Notes under the pieces: model-generated | Told to the model about the DNA's origin: nothing | What the model saw: only the letters and a program-made list of their open reading frames with translations | Database searches by the model: none | Shown: positions 1 through 6,355 of the stretch, one piece after another | Layout: every line of letters begins with the position of its first letter | How positions within the stretch are numbered: the first letter of the stretch is position 1 | DNA from: Allobaculum fili | GTDB taxonomy: Bacteria > Bacillota_I > Bacilli_A > Erysipelotrichales > Erysipelotrichaceae | Assembly: GCF_020969955.1 (NCBI RefSeq) | Contig: NZ_JAHDSX010000075.1 | Coordinates: 1-6,355, forward strand | Length of the DNA stretch: 6,355 bases | Direction: 5' to 3' | Translations under genes and position numbers: made by a program

Positions 1-655
1 GCCTGGATTCGCTCTCGCCGATCCAGATGCCAAGGATATCTTTGCAGCCTTCCGTGTCATAGCCAAGAACCACATATACAGCCTGTTCTTTGGCACCATG
101 ATCGGTTTTCACTGATACGTAAAGGCAATCGACGAATACGAAAGGATAGCACTTCTTCAGGGGACGATGACGCCACTCATCAACAACCGGATAGACACGA
201 TCAGTGATGTTTGAAATCGTATCCGCAGAGACCGGGAAGCCATAGATATCCTGAATGATGTCGGAGATGTCGCGCTGTGACATACCCTGCCCATACATAC
301 GCAGGATCTTGTCCTCGATATCGGAAATATCCCGGCTGCCTTTAGGAACAGCCTGCGGTTCGAATGTACCAAGGCGATCACGAGGGATACGCAGATCCAG
401 TTCGCCCTGAGAAGACCTTACCGTCTTCTCAGAATAGCCATTGTGGCGATTCTCTGTCGATTTAGGATCATGCGATCCGCTGGTATAACCGAGATGCGCA
501 TCAAGTTCTCCCTGGAGCATCTGTTCAAGGACAGGGCCAAAGATTTCCTTGATGAGGTCTGCGGCTTCTTTAAACGTCTTAGGTTTGTATTCCTTAACGA
601 TGGTTGAAGCAATCTGTTCCTGAATGGTTGGTGCAGCTTTAGCTTTACGTGGCAT
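1..655 (-). CDS. IS256-family (Mutator-like, Transposase_mut) DDE transposase, N-terminal ~218 codons; ORF continues beyond the left edge of the window
   Basis: ATG at 655-653 (minus) is preceded by AAGGAG (668-663) with a 7-nt spacer. My translation is open to position 2: MPRKAKAAPTIQEQIASTIVKEYKPKTFKEAADLIKEIFGPVLEQMLQGELDAHLGYTSGSHDPKSTENRHNGYSEKTVRSSQGELDLRIPRDRLGTFEPQAVPKGSRDISDIEDKILRMYGQGMSQRDISDIIQDIYGFPVSADTISNITDRVYPVVDEWRHRPLKKCYPFVFVDCLYVSVK... The blocks E..L..HLGY, NGY..K.v....G.l.l.IPRDR.G.FEP, MY..GMS.RDI and W..RPL...YP.vFvD are the conserved N-terminal signature of IS256-family transposases. The ORF is missing from the supplied track because it has no stop inside the window. 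Confidence 0.9.
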   Translation of the reverse strand, partial: MPRKAKAAPTIQEQIASTIVKEYKPKTFKEAADLIKEIFGPVLEQMLQGELDAHLGYTSGSHDPKSTENRHNGYSEKTVRSSQGELDLRIPRDRLGTFEPQAVPKGSRDISDIEDKILRMYGQGMSQRDISDIIQDIYGFPVSADTISNITDRVYPVVDEWRHRPLKKCYPFVFVDCLYVSVKTDHGAKEQAVYVVLGYDTEGCKDILGIWIGESESR

Positions 656-717
656 AAGTGGTCTCCTTGTAAAAATTTGTCAGGCTCAAGCTGGTTGTAT
701 CAGTCTGATGTCTTGAT

Positions 718-746
718 GGAATTTACACAAAAGACCTTACACTCTC
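718..746 (-). repeat. Putative terminal inverted repeat of the IS256-family element
   Basis: See above: the GA...TGTGTAAA spacing matches the IS256 terminus from memory. The partner IR is outside the window, so inverted-repeat status cannot be verified here. Confidence 0.5.
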
Positions 747-994
747 ATTTTGCACTTGGTATTGTTACCGGATCTAACAGCGATTACATATCTAGTGAAA
801 AAAGTAATACAAAAGAGACCGTTCTAAAGGGCAGTGATATATTCAAATTCAGATTTGTTGGTGGAAGGAACTTCATCAGATTTGATCCTGATAATTTTTA
901 ACAGGCTGCTCCGACTCGCTTTTACAGAGTCAAGGAAAAGTTAATTTATCGGTTCATATGTGCTGCGCCTGTATTCGCTTATGATGATCAGCAA
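747..994 (+). pseudogene. Remnant of the TaqI-like C-terminal target-recognition domain of an N6-adenine DNA methyltransferase / type IIG-BREX-like enzyme; 5'-truncated by the IS, in-frame TAA at 899-901, 3' end replaced
   Basis: The frame-2 translation from 747 reads FALGIVTGSNSDYISSEKSNTKETVLKGSDIFKFRFVGGRNFIRFDPDNF*QAAPTRFYRVKEKLIYRFICAAPVFAYDDQQ. It matches the by-eye pattern of Eco57I/TaqI_C-type modules: G-I-x-T-G-x-N, then KG-x-DI-x-(R/K)-(Y/F), then W-I-x-Y-D-type strand, then pKI(l/v)yRxI....fAyDD. There is no start codon of its own. The first 23 codons of track ORF 677-901 are IS leader sequence. Confidence 0.55.
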
Positions 995-1141
995 GCTAGG
1001 TATGCTCATTGGCAATACAGCCAGTTATGGGAAGAACGCGCATCTAATAAAGACAAGGAACCAGAGAAGTGGGAGCAATTATGCGTAGCCGACCGGGAAT
1101 CCAATCGAAACCAGGCTCTTCATCGTGAGAGGAAAGAGAAA

Positions 1142-1522
1142 ATGGTTCAGTATTTAATCAACTGCTATGGCAACGATGCTTATCAAAGCTTATTCCATGG
1201 GAAAGATCCTCTGTTTGTGATGTCCGAAGACCACGAACCGCAATACAGCAACGTACATCGTTTTGTAACAAGACTCCATGACCTGGATTGTGCTCCTGTC
1301 CTGGAATTAGCAAAAATAGAGCATCGGCACTGGAGTGCTTACTATATCGCCAAAGGATGGAAATATCTGCCTTTGAAAGAAATCAAACAGCTCCAGCAGC
1401 AGTCTGATGGATATACGAACAAAGTGATCCGGGAAGTGGCGCCTGCTCACGTCGATCTGGTTAATTTTGAACGTCTTTGCCAGGATGATTATGAGAGTAT
1501 CAAATATGACCTGTCTTATTGA
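1142..1522 (+). CDS. RyR-like repeat protein fragment (C-terminal regulatory region of a larger protein; 126-aa ORF from the first available ATG)
   Basis: The reading frame is open from 902 and similarity begins at about 995: ARYAHWQYSQLWEER...KWEQLCVADRESNRNQALHRERKEKM. This resembles the aIHe.Y...W..L.e....SNR.QA.HI..KL block. LAKIEHRHWSAYYIAKGWKY...APAHVDLVNFERLCQDDYESIKYD resembles the bacterial RyR-domain consensus LA..eHe.W.a.....GW.yG....k.hP.LvpyeeL.e..k.kD. The ATG at 1142 has a GAGAGGAAAGAG purine-rich stretch upstream. There is no in-frame ATG between 902 and 1141, so the ancestral N-terminal domain is missing. Confidence 0.45.
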   Translation: MVQYLINCYGNDAYQSLFHGKDPLFVMSEDHEPQYSNVHRFVTRLHDLDCAPVLELAKIEHRHWSAYYIAKGWKYLPLKEIKQLQQQSDGYTNKVIREVAPAHVDLVNFERLCQDDYESIKYDLSY

Positions 1523-1574
1523 TTCGAGACATTAAAGACTGAGAAAGAGAGTTAGCAGGGGAAAGGAAACAGTT

Positions 1575-3683
1575 ATGAGTTCTAGTGACAAAGAGTACGA
1601 CAAATCGAAAACAGTCTCTGCTTTGGAAACAACAGTGAACAGCAATGATGAAGAACGGCTTTCAGATAAATATCGTGTATTCCTCTGTTACCGGGGTGAA
1701 ACTTCTGGAAATAGTGAAGGAAAGAAATTTGCCGAAAAGCTCCATGATTTTCTAACGCATACTGCTTTTGCCAAAGACAGTCTTGGTGAAATCTACTTAT
1801 CAGAAAGAGAAGACCGCAGCGGAAACTTCAAAAGCAGCCTGTCAATAATAATGAAATCGGTCGAGTATTTCATTATTCCATTTACGCCAAATTTCTTTGA
1901 CGGTTTTCCACAGGACTCATCGGACGAGCAGACTATCGATAAAAGCATTACTTATCACGAACTCCTTCAGGCTTTCAATAATCCGAACCTTTCGTTTATC
2001 AATGTCTGCATTGGCGAATCAAGAAACGATCTGATCGACAAGGATCTGCTGGTAAGTCTGTATGGAAGCGAAAATGCGGAACGGATAACTACTGTCAAAA
2101 TGCTCAATTATACGCCGGAAAACAGCCAGGAAATTTTTGAACAGATTTATAACCGTATCCGCATCGGCAACGAAAGCATCGCCGACAAAATCCATGAACA
2201 CAAACCGAATGTTTATCTTGATGCAAAAGAAGAACTGGAGTCAGACCAGTTTCCGCTGTACGCAAGACTGTATAATGTTCGCTCTTTGACACTGCTAAAC
2301 TTTGCTTCCAGCTCGTTTATTTCAGGAGCCAGCATTGCGAAAAGCTATGAACAGACAGACCAGATGAAAATCTGGTTTAACCGCCATCTGATTGAAGGAA
2401 AGATTACCGTCAATATTATTCTTACCGACCCGCATTCGCACGCTGCTATGGATGCTGCACTATATAAAATGAATCCAGAGAATCTGACCATTAACAAGGA
2501 TCAGATCATTCTATCCAACCTCAACAAGCTGTTTGCGTTCATGCGTAAACACCCAGAAGCAGATCTCCATGTATACCTGACTCCTGTCGCACTGCCATAT
2601 GGAATTATGCTGGCGGAATTCAACAGTGCAGACAAGTATAATAACTACATGAAAATCGACCTGTATGCAGCGGATATCGAACGTGATGGCAAGCGGCCAT
2701 CCTTCTTTCTCCTGCAAAAAGACGAAGAAACGAAAGCGATGTTTAAGTTTTTTAAAGACAATGTTCTGCGTTTGAAAACCAGTGATTCCAGACCATTTTA
2801 TGGTCATCCTGAAATTGACTGGATGGAAACCCAAAATTCAAAGATTGTTCATCGAGGAATTGCCAAAGAACATCTAAAGCCCCATACTTTGCAGGCTTTC
2901 CGGCACTGTATCAATAAAGAGCATCCTGTCGAAGTCGATTTGTTTACATTGAGCGATGGTACGATTGTAGTAGGACGTTTAGATGAAGATTTTGCGCAGG
3001 AGATATGCAAAGATCCAAACAAGCTAAAGAATACTTCGCTTGGGGACCTAAGAATTTACAACCGTACCCGTCCCGAAGAAACTGTTCTGACGCTCGATGA
3101 ATTTCTAAAGCTGATCAGCGGCAGAATTCCGATTTTAATCGAAATAAAGACTATAAACAATTCTTTATCAAATGCGGGGAAAGCTCATGAAGTTCCGTAC
3201 AGCCATGGAGCAGAACGAGAAGGAGAACTATCTGCCGCCTGCAAAGCGCAGGTTTCAAAAATCATCGAGACCATTCATCAGTATTCTGTAAATTACCAGC
3301 ACATCTTTACAATCAATACAGGAAGAACCGGTTCACCAATAGCGATCCATTCTTCGGATGTTCGAATTGTAAATATGGTGAATGAACGCGACTGCCTTAT
3401 TCCGTCAGGGATTATTGTCAGCGAATTCGAAGAGAAATATGGCTTCAACGCGTCAGATCAGCGAATCGACTGTCATCAATTAGAACGGATTGAAGAGCTG
3501 CAGCCGGATTTTGTAAGTTATGACCTCGACTTTCTGCATGAGGGAAATGTTGAGAAAATCAAAACGATGCTGCACATTCCTGTCATTTCCTGGACTGCTA
3601 AAAGCAAGGATCAAATTCTTCAATCTTTTGATTACGGCTGCACCAATACAATCTGCGAAAATCTGGAAGATATGGAAAATTAA
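1575..3683 (+). CDS. 702-aa TIR-like / unassigned middle module / GDPD-type (glycerophosphodiester phosphodiesterase fold) fusion protein
   Basis: The longest ORF in the window. ATG 1575 is preceded by GAAAGGAAA (AAGGA at 1563-1567, 7-nt spacer), and a terminator lies 26 nt after the stop.
- aa 33-~198 (nt 1671-2168): YRVFLCYRGE...FAEKLHDFL...IYLSE...FKSSLSIIMKSVEYFIIPFTPNFF...SITYHELLQAF...LSFINVCIG. This is the TIR pattern (F-L/I-S/C-Y-R-G-E-D strand A; I..AI..S...I.v.S.nY; w..EL helix with candidate catalytic E129, nt 1959-1961).
- aa ~215-420 (nt 2217-2834): unassigned.
- aa 423-700 (nt 2841-3674): KIVHRGIAKEHLKPHTLQAF...PVEVDLFTLSDGTIVV...TLDEFLKLISGRIPILIEIKT...IPVISWTAKSKDQILQSFDYGCTNTICEN. 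This is the GDPD pattern (HRG, E-x-D, l.iEiK, v.vWTvn....G.dgi.Td). Confidence 0.85.
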   Translation: MSSSDKEYDKSKTVSALETTVNSNDEERLSDKYRVFLCYRGETSGNSEGKKFAEKLHDFLTHTAFAKDSLGEIYLSEREDRSGNFKSSLSIIMKSVEYFIIPFTPNFFDGFPQDSSDEQTIDKSITYHELLQAFNNPNLSFINVCIGESRNDLIDKDLLVSLYGSENAERITTVKMLNYTPENSQEIFEQIYNRIRIGNESIADKIHEHKPNVYLDAKEELESDQFPLYARLYNVRSLTLLNFASSSFISGASIAKSYEQTDQMKIWFNRHLIEGKITVNIILTDPHSHAAMDAALYKMNPENLTINKDQIILSNLNKLFAFMRKHPEADLHVYLTPVALPYGIMLAEFNSADKYNNYMKIDLYAADIERDGKRPSFFLLQKDEETKAMFKFFKDNVLRLKTSDSRPFYGHPEIDWMETQNSKIVHRGIAKEHLKPHTLQAFRHCINKEHPVEVDLFTLSDGTIVVGRLDEDFAQEICKDPNKLKNTSLGDLRIYNRTRPEETVLTLDEFLKLISGRIPILIEIKTINNSLSNAGKAHEVPYSHGAEREGELSAACKAQVSKIIETIHQYSVNYQHIFTINTGRTGSPIAIHSSDVRIVNMVNERDCLIPSGIIVSEFEEKYGFNASDQRIDCHQLERIEELQPDFVSYDLDFLHEGNVEKIKTMLHIPVISWTAKSKDQILQSFDYGCTNTICENLEDMEN

Positions 3684-3708
3684 TACAAAATCAATCAAAT
3701 ACTCATAA

Positions 3709-3746
3709 CTCCTGCGAGAATCATAAAACTCGTCAGGAGCTTTTTT
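3709..3746 (+). terminator. Rho-independent terminator after the TIR-GDPD ORF
   Basis: CTCCTGCGAG (3709-3718) pairs with CTCGTCAGGAG (3729-3739), with one bulged T. The loop is 10 nt and TTTTTT follows at 3741-3746. It lies between convergent coding regions. Confidence 0.7.
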
Positions 3747-3747
3747 A

Positions 3748-3999
3748 TCAAATGCGCCGTAAAACCCCTGCCTTCAGGCAGAAAGCGTCAAACAGAACCC
3801 CATCCTGGAAGTCAGATTCTGGACGAACGGACTTCATACCAAGAGCGGTCTTCAGCTTGTACTCACACAAGGTGTGAGCGGCAGTACCTTCCTTGGCTGC
3901 AAGACCGGAAGTATCCGGATAGAGTTCTTCAAGTCTTGCCGATGGCGTACAATGAAGCCAACGATGGGATGTGGATGGAGAGAGGATGCTGTGACTCAT
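3748..3999 (-). pseudogene. 3'-truncated DUF2800-type PD-(D/E)XK (Cas4/RecB-like) phage/ICE nuclease gene; only about the first 60 residues look authentic
   Basis: MSHSILSPSTSHRWLHCTPSARLEELYPDTSGLAAKEGTAAHTLCEYKLKTALGM... is the characteristic N-terminus of DUF2800 proteins (ILS.S.SHRWL.C.PSARL...aA.eGT.aH.LcE.kL). As I recall, these are normally several hundred residues long. Here the ORF stops after 83 aa, directly against the terminator of the opposing gene. ATG 3999 overlaps the stop of the upstream gene (ATGA). Confidence 0.7.
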
Positions 4000-4273
4000 T
4001 TCAATCCCTCCGCATCATTGACAAGAGCCTGGTAGTGAGCAGGATCAATTTTGGAAAGTTTGCTAGCGCCATACTTTTCAAGAAGCTGCTGGATCTGCGC
4101 TGTAAAACCGGCTCTGGATTTTTCAGCGAGAATTGCACGGACTTCTTCAAGCGTAAGTCTTGGCTGTTCAGGCTTTTTTCGGGCTTTGCTTATCCAGATG
4201 AGACTTTTGGAGCAGAGAGTCCATCAGCCATCCGGTTGAGAACGATGAGAAGTTCTTTTTGGAATTCATCCAT
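3996..4273 (-). pseudogene. Small phage/ICE-module protein located upstream of DUF2800, disrupted by a frameshift (or sequencing indel)
   Basis: ATG 4273-4271 has AAGAGG upstream. Frame A gives MDEFQKELLIVLNRMADGLSAPKVSSG and then TAA (4192-4190). A second frame gives ...SKARKKPEQPRLTLEEVRAILAEKSRAGFTAQIQQLLEKYGASKLSKIDPAHYQALVNDAEGLK, stopping at 3998-3996. It has no start codon of its own but carries the conserved part (TLEEVRA.LAEKSRAG....). The frame change must lie between 4223 and 4193, and a T4 run at 4205-4208 is inside that interval. Confidence 0.6.
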
Positions 4274-4326
4274 GGTGATTACCTCTTTCACTAGGTAGCC
4301 ATGGAAATGGATGGAGTGTGACAGGG

Positions 4327-4371
4327 AAAATAAAAAAAGTGGCCAAAAACCGAAAAACGGTTCATGACCAC
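4327..4371 (-). terminator. Rho-independent terminator on the minus strand with no intact gene upstream of it
   Basis: The minus strand reads GTGGTCAtgAACCGtttttCGGTTttTGGCCAC followed by TTTTTTTATTTT. The outer stem is 7 bp (one G-U) and the inner stem 5 bp, followed by a strong U-tract. There is no U-tract on the plus-strand side. Confidence 0.45.
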
Positions 4372-4610
4372 AAAGCCTTACCTAAGAATTTCATTTAAAT
4401 AATTTTGCACTGCAATGGAATCATATCCTGCTTTCTTCGGTCGATTAACTCTGACCTGATTACAATCTCACAACTCGGATAAAAGTTTTCAAGACATACA
4501 AAATACAATTAAATACCATCGACCTAAATCAAACGTCTATATTATACGTGTAGTAAGATTACTCATCTAGTAAGGAAGAGAATGCTTAACCCACTATCGG
4601 AGGTTCAACA

Positions 4611-4679
4611 ATGAGGTGCATGAAATTACTGATAGCACGCCTTACGCTCAAATTTTCACACTGCTATTTACCAACATGA
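4611..4679 (+). CDS. Speculative 22-codon mini-ORF (leader peptide candidate): MRCMKLLIARLTLKFSHCYLPT
   Basis: GGAGG at 4599-4603, a 7-nt spacer, ATG 4611 and TGA 4677-4679. It lies in the otherwise ORF-free leader upstream of the peptidase cassette and contains the left arm of the 11-bp inverted repeat. There is no homology support. Confidence 0.25.
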   Translation: MRCMKLLIARLTLKFSHCYLPT

Positions 4680-4713
4680 ATCTAGACAGAGAGATTGGCT
4701 GCTGAGCGTAAGG
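4640..4713. repeat. Perfect 11-bp inverted repeat with 52-nt spacer in the 5' leader of the peptidase cassette
   Basis: CCTTACGCTCA (4640-4650) and TGAGCGTAAGG (4703-4713) are exact reverse complements. The right arm ends 25 nt before the AAGGA Shine-Dalgarno (4739-4743) of ORF 4752. Confidence 0.6.
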
Positions 4714-4751
4714 AATAAAACAAAGCCTGATTTTCGTAAAGGAAAACATTT

Positions 4752-4958
4752 ATGAGATCAAAAATTAAGAAGTTACTAGCGAATATCGCTATTTCACTCT
4801 CGATTTTCGTATCTTCTATACCTGTAATCGCTGTAAAGGGATTAGCGTTTGATATTCCCATTCCAGCCAATGCTTTTCTCGAGGAATCTAATACGCTACA
4901 ACAGTTTAGAGCCTCACTTGAAGTGGATTTGTTGTTTGAAAAAAACTATGCCGCTTAA
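4752..4958 (+). CDS. 68-aa ORF encoding a Sec-type signal peptide plus short linker; probably the detached 5' part of the peptidase gene
   Basis: AAGGA at 4739-4743 with an 8-nt spacer, then ATG 4752. The sequence has a classic signal-peptide layout: MRSKIKK (basic n-region), LLANIAISLSIFVSSIPVIAV (hydrophobic core), then KGLAFDIPIPANAF. The ORF ends at TAA 4956-4958, just after an A7 tract (4939-4945). Confidence 0.6.
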   Translation: MRSKIKKLLANIAISLSIFVSSIPVIAVKGLAFDIPIPANAFLEESNTLQQFRASLEVDLLFEKNYAA

Positions 4959-5772
4959 TGACTCAGATCAGAATCCCAGATATTATTATATTCCTTTTGC
5001 TCAGGGAGGATATTTAATCTATGATCTGACAGACGACTTGATCTGTGAGTTTAGCCTGTCAAAAGAAAATGAGTATTCATTCTCGAATAATGATTATATC
5101 TATTCTGGGCCGCTATCCTTGTTTGAAATCACTGAAGATGGTTTTATTGATGTTAAATCGAACGAGGTTTTCACAGATACAGATAACTTCATTATGAGGG
5201 TTAAATCTATTGAGACGAGAGAATTAGAGTCTAAACAATCTATCCGATCTGATAAGTCTGTTAGACGTATCATGAATGCTTATAACACAATTTCTGGTAC
5301 CGTTCCAAGCTATAGTTATAATCCTGATGGCAGATGCGGAGCGGTGGCAGCAGCGATGCTGGTGCGGTGGTATGACATTTATAGGAATGGCCGGTACGTC
5401 CCAAGTAGTTTAGAAAGTAGTGATGGGGTTTCTCTCATTAATCATCTTTGGAACAAAATGAAAAACTCAAGTTATGCGGGTGCTTATTCTGGAACTGTAT
5501 CTACTGAGATGATGAACTTTATAGGATCTCAAGGGTTAAGCCATTCCGGTGGATTGGACGGATATACTGACGAATATGTTATTGGTCGTGTGGATTCTTA
5601 TGGAACTCCCTATATTCTAAATCTGTTTAACCACCCTACCTATTCCAACCATTTTGTAACTGGTTATGGATATCGTTCGAATTCCACTGGATTCTACACC
5701 ATAGTAAATGATGGTTGGGGGAACAGGAAAATGGAGGTCAACTCGAATTATGCGACGACAATTATCTGGTAA
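4948..5772 (+). CDS. Papain-fold (clan CA) cysteine peptidase with N-terminal Spi/C10-type prodomain-like region (C10/C47/C39-like; family uncertain)
   Basis: Candidate catalytic Cys lies in NPDGRCGAVAAAMLVRWY (TGC 5335-5337), compare tGCvAtAmAqimkY. Candidate catalytic His lies in SNHFVTGYGYRSNSTGFYTIVNDGWGN (CAT 5650-5652), compare gHafv.dGY....g...vN.GWgG. The N-terminal RYYYIPFAQGGYLIYDLTDDLICEFSLSKENEY resembles the propeptide/inhibitor motif y.v.nf..gGfvivsaDd...i.gys..g.f. Track ORF 4849-5772 is the same frame. ATG 4948 is the first start consistent with the homologous part but has no SD (see the A7 finding). Confidence 0.7.
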   Translation: MPLNDSDQNPRYYYIPFAQGGYLIYDLTDDLICEFSLSKENEYSFSNNDYIYSGPLSLFEITEDGFIDVKSNEVFTDTDNFIMRVKSIETRELESKQSIRSDKSVRRIMNAYNTISGTVPSYSYNPDGRCGAVAAAMLVRWYDIYRNGRYVPSSLESSDGVSLINHLWNKMKNSSYAGAYSGTVSTEMMNFIGSQGLSHSGGLDGYTDEYVIGRVDSYGTPYILNLFNHPTYSNHFVTGYGYRSNSTGFYTIVNDGWGNRKMEVNSNYATTIIW

Positions 5773-6115
5773 TGATAGAAGTTTAATTTTTCAGCTATTA
5801 GCCGTCATAGGGTTATGCATTCTGACAATACTCGGTGTGCAGTATATAGGTGATCACGGGAGATCAGCTGGCTACTATCTAACGGGAAATGTAATATCAG
5901 CAGGAGAGAAGAATTTCTGTATAACTGTTATTCCAGATGAATCAAATGTTGAGCTTCCACTTTCAAAAAATGTCTATTGTTTTGAACTGAAAGATTTTAT
6001 ATCAAATAGCTATATCCCCAAAATTGGGGATGCAGTGCGAATCACGTGCAGTCATGATATGACTGTTTTGATTGATATTTATGATATGGATGTTATAGAT
6101 GATCTTCCTGATTAA
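5750..6115 (+). CDS. 121-aa small protein with N-terminal membrane anchor / uncleaved signal and a beta-rich C-terminal domain; function unknown (candidate peptidase partner)
   Basis: ATG 5750 is preceded by GGAGG (5733-5737) and overlaps the peptidase 3' end by 23 nt. The sequence is MRRQLSGNDR (basic) + SLIFQLLAVIGLCILTILGV (TM) + ~85 aa. The track start at 5708 lacks any SD and adds a non-hydrophobic MMVGGTGKWRSTRI extension inside the peptidase gene. Confidence 0.6.
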   Translation: MRRQLSGNDRSLIFQLLAVIGLCILTILGVQYIGDHGRSAGYYLTGNVISAGEKNFCITVIPDESNVELPLSKNVYCFELKDFISNSYIPKIGDAVRITCSHDMTVLIDIYDMDVIDDLPD

Positions 6116-6160
6116 ACTAGATGTTAAACAATATTAACTATAAATATAAAACGCGATTTC

Positions 6161-6205
6161 AAGCTAGCAGTTCTCTATTTCAATATAGGTTCTGTTAGCT
6201 TTTTG
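6161..6205 (+). terminator. Rho-independent terminator after the peptidase cassette
   Basis: AAGCTAGCAG (6161-6170) pairs with CTGTTAGCTT (6192-6201), giving 10 bp including one G-U. An inner CTAT/ATAG pairing sits in the loop, followed by TTT at 6202-6204. Confidence 0.55.
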
Positions 6206-6355
6206 AATTATCAACTTCTGACTTGTCGCTATAAACTGTACCCCAGAAAGTGGACAATTTTTTTAGAGTCAACCTATTCCAAGGACACCCGATTAGCAGC
6301 GACCCCAACTACTGGACGATCGTTTTGATCTGTTCCCTAATTGCGGACACTTTCT

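Follow-up and report, generated by a model that had tools for sequence, protein, structure and literature searches.

A TIR protein with a conserved domain of predicted PLD-like fold and a divergent GDPD barrel in Allobaculum fili: a candidate immune protein of an undescribed family

TIR enzymes are an immune currency common to bacteria, plants, and animals, yet the way in which they are activated, and the readers of their products, have been worked out in only a few systems. A gene of Allobaculum fili raises both questions. It lies in a 6,355-nucleotide stretch of DNA (contig NZ_JAHDSX010000075.1 of assembly GCF_020969955.1, positions 1 to 6,355, forward strand; this whole stretch is hereafter "the window") and encodes a 702-residue protein. 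A preliminary description, made from the sequence alone, had recognized in this protein a TIR-like domain and a glycerophosphodiester phosphodiesterase (GDPD) barrel on either side of about 200 residues that it could not assign, and had proposed an undescribed single-gene defense system. What, then, defines this protein, and how might its TIR be controlled? We find that the family-defining module is not TIR plus GDPD as such: it is the central domain, here termed MID, together with a barrel (GDPD or cupin). Tentatively, and with a confidence somewhat short of even, we read the window protein as a cytoplasmic, trigger-gated TIR immune protein of a previously undescribed gut-Bacillota family, in which MID and GDPD would form the sensing or regulatory unit, and which would work either by itself, depleting NAD+, or in a Thoeris-like manner together with RyR-domain effectors. 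What is new here is one domain family (MID) and a potentially important RyR link; TIR-based immunity itself is already known.

An intact gene and its central domain

The gene, its punctuation, and its three domains are placed as follows, in coordinates of the window.

1557..1567, + strand: Shine-Dalgarno (SD)-like AGGGGAAAGGA, 7 nucleotides (nt) before the ATG, read directly from the sequence
1575..3683, + strand: TIR / PLD-like (MID) / GDPD gene, an intact open reading frame (ORF) with an ATG start, 702 amino acids (aa)
1665..2174, + strand: TIR-like domain, aa 31-200, with an RVFLCYRG beta-A motif and a putative catalytic Glu129
2205..2789, + strand: MID, a new domain with a modeled phospholipase D (PLD)-like fold, aa 211-405, the most conserved and family-defining part of the protein
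2835..3674, + strand: divergent GDPD TIM barrel, aa 421-700, from Pfam, the family profile, Foldseek, and an active-site census
3709..3746, + strand: intrinsic terminator with a 10-bp stem carrying one bulge, a 10-nt loop, and a U6 tail

The preliminary description of an intact and well-punctuated gene was borne out in the exact ORF boundaries, in AGGGGAAAGGA, in the hairpin at 3709-3746, and in homologs of full length. The hairpin folds with a dG of -14.2 kcal/mol (z = -3.0), and 0/200 shuffled sequences were as stable; its 10-nt loop kept it from being recognized by a simple consensus terminator scan. Intactness required closer attention, as the corresponding gene is split in Allobaculum sp. 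Allo2 (CP078088.1, locus L017; Erysipelotrichaceae), which is 99.84% identical to the window. Over the 6355 bp, the two assemblies differ by ten 1-bp length changes and zero substitutions. All ten fall within runs of 5-7 identical bases (A, T, or G), each time with one base fewer in Allo2, and two of them disrupt the TIR-MID-GDPD gene there. These differences are probably long-read errors in one of the two assemblies, and they decide which genes look intact. Since only homopolymer lengths differ and the window version fits all homologs, we rejected the possibility of a pseudogene. The 702-aa ORF is real and intact, because the window version aligns end to end with its homologs, both those of 29-65% identity and one protein (P0001) that is 99% identical across 702 aa. 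The protein has no signal peptide or transmembrane segment, and its N-terminus is hydrophilic and disordered.

The middle ~200 residues, far from being unassignable, turned out to be the best-conserved part of the protein and a domain of predicted PLD-like fold. In the AlphaFold2 (AF2) model, MID has the topology beta-alpha-beta-alpha-beta-beta-beta-beta-alpha, and Foldseek matched it to vaccinia F13 (E 3.6e-6), the phospholipase D structure 7e0m, TrmB, FAM83, and PPK, with template-modeling (TM) scores of 0.3-0.5. Residues K360, D362, Y364, R374, and S376 are conserved. The position of the HKD histidine, 358, is occupied by His in seven members of the family, Tyr in six, and Asn in one, and is Tyr358 in the window protein. 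The catalytic motif HxK(x)4D(x)6GSxN is absent: K360 and D362 lie only two residues apart, and RPSF stands in place of GSxN. When the MID profile was compared with PDB sequences, no sequence-level link to PLD was found, so that MID is assigned, on its predicted structure, as a new PLD-like-fold domain at the level of fold only. Closest in arrangement are the TrmB sugar-binding domain, with its PLD-like and beta-barrel subdomains, and other non-catalytic PLD-fold domains such as FAM83. Here too, an alpha/beta domain of modeled PLD-like fold leads straight into a barrel, the histidine of HKD is not kept, and in some members of the MID family a DNA-binding domain is attached. This likeness is also confined to the fold (Foldseek E about 3e-3, target TM 0.39-0.52, without sequence similarity), and the MID proteins differ from TrmB in having a GDPD TIM barrel or a cupin as barrel and, usually, a TIR rather than a helix-turn-helix (HTH) as output.

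A constant module with interchangeable N-termini

Next, we evaluated how widely MID occurs and with which partners. MID is rare, with 293 representatives among 1.84 billion proteins in an exhaustive HMMER search with the MID profile. The full TIR-MID-GDPD architecture is rarer still, with 15 clusters in 5.8 billion proteins, and a metagenome scan added only two further full-length loci. Overall, the family is sporadic, rare, and singleton in its distribution across gut Bacillota, as is typical of accessory conflict genes, although this pattern is not proof of such a role. An offline census covered 171 MID proteins. About 41 were TIR-MID-GDPD proteins, and about 18 combined MID-GDPD with other N-termini; a further 18 were CAP12-type TIR-MID proteins (4 with a fused cupin), 4 were DUF4062-MID, 4 MID-cupin, 18 carried a helical N-terminal domain, and 2 had a further TIR-like or NDT-like N-terminus. 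DUF4062 is itself a TIR-like NADase, as shown experimentally (10.64898/2026.05.01.722283).

Individual relatives illustrate the range of these N-termini. In P0041, Pfam finds TIR_2 (1.4e-12) and GDPD (1e-9) around MID, and P0092 joins a TIR of the CBASS-effector type (PF10137; Pfam 1.5e-25, PADLOC 8e-28) to MID and GDPD. P0085 carries a Trans_reg_C domain before TIR, MID, and GDPD, P0093 a weak HTH before MID and GDPD, and P0077 a complete 2TM-SAVED effector before the same two domains. More generally, the TIRs of the relatives match PADLOC effector TIR models of CBASS and Pycsar. At the other end of the protein the pattern is constant: a context scan showed a cupin, either fused or encoded just downstream, for each of the MID proteins that lack GDPD. 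MID is thus always paired with a C-terminal barrel, be it GDPD or a fused or adjacent cupin, and its N-terminal partner is swappable among known outputs and effectors, namely TIR-type NADases in four or five versions, 2TM-SAVED, and winged HTH or HTH.

This architecture appears to have escaped existing catalogs. Zero families of PADLOC-DB v2.0.0 match the window protein at E <= 10, MID goes unmatched in PADLOC for all relatives tested, the architecture is absent from NCBIfam, and we found no paper joining TIR and GDPD with phage defense, or TIR with a cupin of the MID type. The union of TIR and GDPD in one protein is real, being confirmed at family level by the Pfam matches of P0041, and the statement that no described TIR system carries a GDPD barrel stands for PADLOC-DB v2, NCBIfam, and the literature found. 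The broader claim of an undescribed defense system is upheld in so far as the system is uncataloged and its relatives carry bona fide defense effector domains; its core needs restating, as MID plus barrel.

Two other architectures were seen among the MID proteins. At loci L008-L016, L024, and L026, a protein with a TIR-type domain and MID invariably precedes a ~140-aa cupin or is fused to one, and the cupin keeps the HxH...E/D metal motif intact (for instance at 6227-7345 and 7342-7773 of L013, and at 6266-7810 of L008). Both MID and the cupin are absent from PADLOC, no cyclase lies nearby, and the pair looks like an undescribed two-gene TIR module. In a third architecture, which is found in high-GC Oscillospiraceae and Flavonifractor, a ~200-aa helical N-terminal domain that neither Pfam nor PADLOC matches precedes MID, and a cupin gene comes next (L010 7386-8648, L011 7404-8627, and about 18 proteins in databases).

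For the window protein itself, the TIR assignment rests mainly on structure. Pfam gave zero TIR matches even at E <= 10, and among the 15 family members only one was matched by TIR_2 (E 0.0027). The AF2 model shows a (beta-alpha)5 domain with five beta-alpha units in residues 33-195, and residues 31-200 matched the SARM1 TIR in Foldseek with E 1e-3, probability 1.0, a target TM of 0.72-0.73, and a root-mean-square deviation (rmsd) of 3.9 A; they also matched the TIRs of L7, RUN1, RPP1, and IL-18Rbeta. The best match of the N-terminal profile among PDB sequences was likewise an animal TIR, that of C. elegans TIR-1 (E = 0.067, about 16% identity), in an alignment that pairs RIFLSYR with DVFISYR and E129 with the Glu of WVHKE. 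E129 is kept in 14/14 members, and we take it to be the counterpart of the catalytic Glu of SARM1, E642. Hence the best structural and the best sequence match agree on the SARM1/TIR-1 type of TIR NADase, with which the window protein shares the FxSYR beta-A motif and an aligned catalytic-Glu helix (..Y.E-I..A- versus WVHKE-I..A-). The similarity is remote, however, and the window protein is bacterial, lacks ARM and SAM, and has an unrelated regulatory module. The N-terminus is, in the modeled structure, a TIR-like fold with an invariant Glu129, for which NADase or cyclase activity is only predicted, and the earlier reading of its motifs and of E129 as candidate catalytic residue was essentially right.

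Curated TIR profiles do match relatives of the same architecture, P0041 and P0092 among them. Comparisons of the N-terminal profile with the TIR_2, CAP12, DUF4062, and NDT-like N-termini of relatives were uninformative (hhalign E 0.05-0.4); these alignments were too shallow and badly grouped, so we make no claim that these TIR types are homologous in sequence. Long alignments to F13 had suggested that the N-terminal domain could be a second PLD lobe. This was rejected because of its five-stranded (beta-alpha)5 topology and its TIR match at 3.9 A, as against an rmsd of 21 A to F13. A phmmer search of the whole protein against PDB sequences returned nothing useful, and the BFVD viral fold search gave no significant match and therefore no evidence of phage origin.

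The C-terminal GDPD signature was confirmed more directly. Pfam GDPD (PF03009) stays below threshold on the window protein (19.7 bits versus a cut-off of 23.6) and matches 11/15 members, with a best E of 2.5e-9. The family profile matches PDB GDPDs at E = 1.9e-6, and the AF2 model (mean predicted local distance difference test score, pLDDT, 78.6) matches GlpQ/UgpQ-type barrels in Foldseek with E about 1e-11 and target TM 0.7-0.8; lysophospholipase D enzymes and phage wall-teichoic-acid hydrolases are among the top structural matches. Of the checks that the preliminary description had suggested, Pfam gave no TIR and a sub-threshold GDPD for the window protein, and AlphaFold and Foldseek matched both the TIR-type fold and the GDPD barrel.

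The active site of this barrel is nevertheless altered. Across 57 MID-GDPD representatives, H426 is present in 57/57 and R427 in 50/57 (with 5 further Lys), and the metal/phosphate site is almost invariant (E453 56/57, D455 56/57, E523 57/57, K525 56/57). The position of the canonical second catalytic His is Arg468 in 56/57 (VVGR versus VVMHD), and two conserved His have been added, H437 (46/57) and H592 (51/57). The HR motif, the E-D-E triad, and the Lys of the catalytic set are thus kept, whereas the second general acid/base His is Arg468, and the earlier motif reading holds for the barrel, to which VVGR, the motif with Arg468, is to be added as a correction. Compared with GlpQ/UgpQ-type enzymes, the protein shares the TIM barrel, the HR motif, the E-x-D and E-x-K ligands, and the C-terminal WT.K strand. 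It differs in the Arg that replaces the HD-motif His, in PHT for PENT, in the extra His592, in a ~30-residue low-confidence insert at 528-549, in being always fused after MID, and in never lying in a glp/ugp operon. The barrel is a structural member of the GDPD family with an altered active site, and the pattern of residues suggests a pocket under strong selection but remodeled, which could be a phosphate-ligand binding site or an enzyme with a new substrate.

RyR-like partners and genomic neighborhoods

Is the gene on its own? The preliminary description had found no partner in the window, which is correct for ThsA-like, SIR2, Macro, and SLOG proteins and overlooks the remnant of an RyR-like partner immediately upstream of the gene.

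1142..1522, + strand: 126-aa ORF with a complete RyR/R12-like domain (EHRHW...GW...AHVDLV...KYD), preceded by SD-like GAGAGGAAAGAG
902..1141, + strand: in-frame remnant of the same partner gene, bordered by a stop codon (899-901) and lacking ~600 N-terminal aa of the partner

The 126-aa ORF corresponds to the C-terminal end of an 800-aa protein encoded at locus L005 (tblastn E 2e-9, alignment from 950), and the stop-to-stop ORF 902-1519 matches a profile hidden Markov model (HMM) of the large partners, RYRbig. An HMM of the partner ends scores the 126-aa ORF at 5.9e-46, partly by construction, since this ORF is among its 4 source sequences. Pfam gave no RyR match for it at E <= 0.1; the motif EHRHW..GW..AHVDLV..KYD is present. 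Having its own SD-like GAGAGGAAAGAG, it may be expressed as a small protein of a cADPR (cyclic ADP-ribose)-binding type.

Such partners are complete elsewhere. Large proteins are encoded immediately upstream of, and co-oriented with, the TIR gene at L018 (783 aa, 3 predicted transmembrane helices), L005 (800 aa, 2 transmembrane helices), L022, and L001 (993 aa, ending in a CARF_PDDEXK-type nuclease domain, PADLOC 2.9e-10). At L001 and L018, the genes for the large protein and the TIR protein are separated by a small gene for a canonical Pfam RyR protein of 96 and 108 aa, respectively (E 3e-33). The C-terminal domain shared by the large partners aligns with these canonical RyR neighbors (hhalign E 3.3e-4), and its 4-sequence profile recovers a PF02026 protein (P0173) at E 9e-6 in 5.8 billion sequences, with the motif EHRRWNAYMRT.GY...K.HPCLV nearly verbatim. 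Judged by these profile comparisons, the shared domain is RyR-like. Overall, an RyR/R12 neighbor stands directly upstream in 5/13 independent full-length loci, across three branches of the family tree, while L003, 69% identical to L001, is without one. With partners in these loci and a truncated copy in the window, the gene is not strictly a single-gene system.

Phage RyR/R12-domain proteins bind 2'cADPR and 3'cADPR, and in one case cleave them, contacting the ligand through H-x2-W, a further His at a distance of 22 residues, and an Asp, as two independent 2026 preprints show (PMC13232231; 10.64898/2026.06.04.730250). The RyR-like neighbors, including the 126-aa ORF of the window, carry the same H-x2-W ... 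H ... (Y)D motif as the phage RyDEP and RyR Tad proteins (PF02026), and the L005 protein has the same 22-residue spacing from W to H. Unlike the phage proteins, these neighbors are host-encoded and mostly form the C-terminus of ~800-1000-aa transmembrane or nuclease proteins. Their co-orientation with the TIR gene suggests a role as receptor or regulator rather than in counter-defense.

The wider surroundings are mixed. The window region is scarred by insertion sequences (IS) and indels, with IS66 genes upstream in Allo2 and IS3-type genes beyond a downstream DUF2800 fragment.

3748-3999, - strand: 83-aa ORF matching Pfam DUF2800 (E 3.9e-21) over only the first 60/368 profile positions

This ORF is a 3'-truncated fragment of a PD-(D/E)xK gene of the type found in phages or integrative and conjugative elements. 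No recognized defense system adjoins the gene in the window. At other loci, the P0077 gene (L027) adjoins a complete Kiwa system, L013 and L021 lie near restriction-modification genes, and L001 is part of a mobile island with a VirD4/HerA-like ATPase, kinases, and a resolvase. At L003, L006, L007, L019, and L028, by contrast, the gene is a lone insertion in an ordinary chromosomal neighborhood, and about half of all loci are housekeeping, with surroundings that include Rex/aconitase, the rplL operon, sugar-phosphate isomerase-like genes, and RACo. The typical defense-island context that had been claimed is therefore borne out only in part. No cyclase domain, of either a CD-NTase or a pyrimidine cyclase, is listed in any locus gene table.

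Several neighbors are recorded here in their own right. At L027, an unannotated 325-aa gene (3070-4047) lies 55 bp upstream of the 2TM-SAVED-MID-GDPD gene, just after the Kiwa genes KwaB/KwaA; checked as a possible cyclase or candidate signal synthase, it had no PADLOC or PDB sequence match. At L007, a 132-aa cytidylyltransferase-like gene (9954-10352; PF01467, TagD-like in size) lies 28 bp downstream of a full-length member; nothing else hints at a link to the metabolism of glycerol-phosphate polymers. Upstream of the TIR-MID-GDPD gene, L001 (52-9374) and L004 (1-9959) encode Transglut_core proteins that are homologous to each other (31% identity over 115 aa), together with several large proteins lacking annotation, and this may be a larger conserved island; L001 also encodes Pkinase and PP2C proteins, and its VirD4/HerA-like ATPase has weak PADLOC mad8 and HerA matches. 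Finally, three ORFs on the + strand of the window (4752-4958, 4849-5772, and 5708-6115) overlap in successive frames. One A fewer in the A7 run at 4939, as in Allo2, joins the first, a signal-peptide ORF, to a 307-aa Peptidase_C39_2-like ORF (Pfam E 0.0029), so that a secreted peptidase-like gene appears to be frameshifted in the window, through either an assembly error or slipped-strand variation.

Sensor, effector, or enzyme

How might these parts work together? In the reading of the window protein as a trigger-gated TIR, MID and its barrel would be the constant sensing or regulatory unit, as in TrmB, where a PLD-like subdomain and a beta-barrel together bind a small ligand. On binding a phosphate-containing cue, MID and the barrel would turn the TIR on, and the active TIR would cleave or cyclize NAD+. 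Where upstream RyR/R12 proteins with fused transmembrane or PD-(D/E)xK nuclease modules are present, the TIR product would probably be a cADPR-type signal read by the RyR domain; where they are missing, the TIR would probably act alone, through NAD+ depletion and abortive infection. We read MID and the barrel as a sensing module because a constant module is joined to interchangeable effectors, and as taking the place of the sensor because no cyclase gene is seen beside the CAP12-type TIR-MID proteins. A Thoeris-like signaling logic, with a cADPR-type signal read by an RyR partner, is suggested by TIR genes that adjoin proteins fusing a domain of cADPR-binding type to membrane or nuclease modules. 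In the window, with the partner reduced to a 126-aa RyR-like fragment, the system is either TIR-only or partly decayed. Among the three logics offered in the preliminary description, that of GDPD as part of a sensor controlling the TIR fits the domain swapping best, while GDPD as an envelope-directed effector gated by TIR oligomerization and GDPD as a processor of a TIR-made nucleotide remain as rivals.

Known systems share some of this logic. As in Thoeris, a TIR protein with a conserved, here putative, catalytic Glu stands at the center, and in 5/13 loci a domain of cADPR-binding type joined to a membrane or nuclease module lies beside its gene, which would give the same order of sensor and TIR, signal, and receptor-effector. 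Unlike in Thoeris, neither the window nor the 13 loci hold a ThsA-type partner with SLOG, Macro, or SIR2, the putative receptor domain is an RyR/R12 domain so far known only from phage counter-defense proteins, the TIR protein bears a large PLD-like and GDPD extension, the partner is missing from most loci, and no PADLOC Thoeris model matches. With the TIR effectors of CBASS and Pycsar (Cap12 TIR-STING, TIR-SAVED, PycTIR), the family shares the order of domains, a TIR effector first and a regulatory module at the C-terminus, and sister MID proteins carry exactly that type of TIR (PF10137; PADLOC Effector TIR, PycTIR). These systems differ in that the loci examined here have no cyclase gene and MID with GDPD or cupin replaces STING, SAVED, or CNB; the window protein has none of these three, P0077 being the only relative with SAVED, and its TIR is nearer the SARM1 type than the CAP12 type. 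The most specific form of the proposal, a new Thoeris-like immune system with a PLD-like and barrel sensor, a TIR cyclase, and host RyR/R12 receptors on membrane or PD-(D/E)xK nuclease effectors, is in our estimate rather unlikely as a whole.

A number of observations weigh against reading the protein as a TIR gated by MID and its barrel. The window protein is matched by no TIR model of Pfam or PADLOC, and its best sequence link to a solved TIR is at E = 0.067. The PLD-like call comes from an AF2 model of moderate confidence (13-15 sequences, pLDDT about 75-79) without sequence-level support. The RyR partner is absent from 8/13 loci and truncated in the window itself, and, besides the housekeeping surroundings of about half of the loci, a few abut surface-polysaccharide, sialic-acid, or cytidylyltransferase genes. 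Lastly, the near-invariant residues of the GDPD active site speak no less for catalysis than for binding, and P0077 already has its own sensor (SAVED), so that its MID-GDPD could be an effector.

These last two points lead to a different division of labor, in which GDPD with MID would be a killing effector, a cytoplasmic or membrane-proximal phosphodiesterase that, when activated, acts on phospholipid head groups or on lipid-linked glycerol-phosphate polymers, with the TIR as signal generator, oligomerization scaffold, or second effector. The almost invariant metal/phosphate site would suit such an enzyme, as would the lysophospholipase D and phage wall-teichoic-acid hydrolases of the superfamily, which are both among the top structural matches, and P0077, with a membrane anchor, a SAVED sensor, and MID-GDPD, reads naturally as anchor, sensor, and effector. 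However, the second catalytic His is Arg in 56/57, sister families have in the same position a ~140-aa cupin that is unlikely to kill, the variable N-terminal partners are already known effectors or outputs (TIR NADases, 2TM, HTH), and the window protein is without signal peptide or transmembrane segment. On balance, we consider a killing GDPD possible but doubtful. The barrel could also be a signal processor, the GDPD (or cupin) converting or destroying a phosphodiester nucleotide made by the TIR or bound by SAVED, and so maturing the signal read by RyR or serving as an off-switch. The remodeling by Arg468, His437, and His592 would suit a more anionic, nucleotide-like substrate, and MID-GDPD is attached to a SAVED-containing effector. 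Also in its favor are the small stand-alone RyR proteins of L001 and L018, which suggest signal buffering at those loci; proteins with this domain are capable of binding or cleaving cADPR signals (PMC13232231). To our knowledge, however, no GDPD acts on ADP-ribose-type or cyclic oligonucleotide substrates; moreover, fusions to DNA-binding domains are left unexplained, and the cupin would need an equivalent reaction. In sum, we regard signal processing by the barrel as improbable.

Alternatively, the likeness to defense could be incidental, and the protein a non-immune accessory enzyme of regulation or metabolism, for example one that ties glycerophosphodiester or envelope-polymer turnover to NAD status or transcription. 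The housekeeping loci would be accommodated by this view, as would the polysaccharide, sialic-acid, or cytidylyltransferase genes next to some members and the DNA-binding domains that give others the look of one-component regulators. It is harder to reconcile with the lack of a conserved metabolic operon partner, with the sporadic and rare distribution of the full architecture (15 clusters), with the CBASS- and Pycsar-type TIR, DUF4062, and 2TM-SAVED effector domains of relatives, with the several loci beside Kiwa, restriction-modification, or mobile elements, and with RyR partners fused to nuclease or transmembrane modules. A non-immune role thus seems to us a poor prospect.

Whichever way the TIR is controlled, the family presents an uncataloged, putatively regulatory module, a domain of modeled PLD-like fold with a barrel (GDPD or cupin), that is joined to effector or output domains of at least five kinds, and a GDPD subfamily whose systematically remodeled active site points to a searchable ligand or substrate. 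It also gives a first genomic hint of host-encoded RyR/R12 domains downstream of TIR. If the reading of a TIR gated by MID and its barrel and coupled to RyR proteins is true, it would add a new class of receptor for TIR signaling and a first cellular immune role for a bacterial RyR domain, and it would provide a prokaryotic precedent for cADPR-to-RyR signaling, making the long-debated connection between cADPR and RyR testable in a simple bacterial system.

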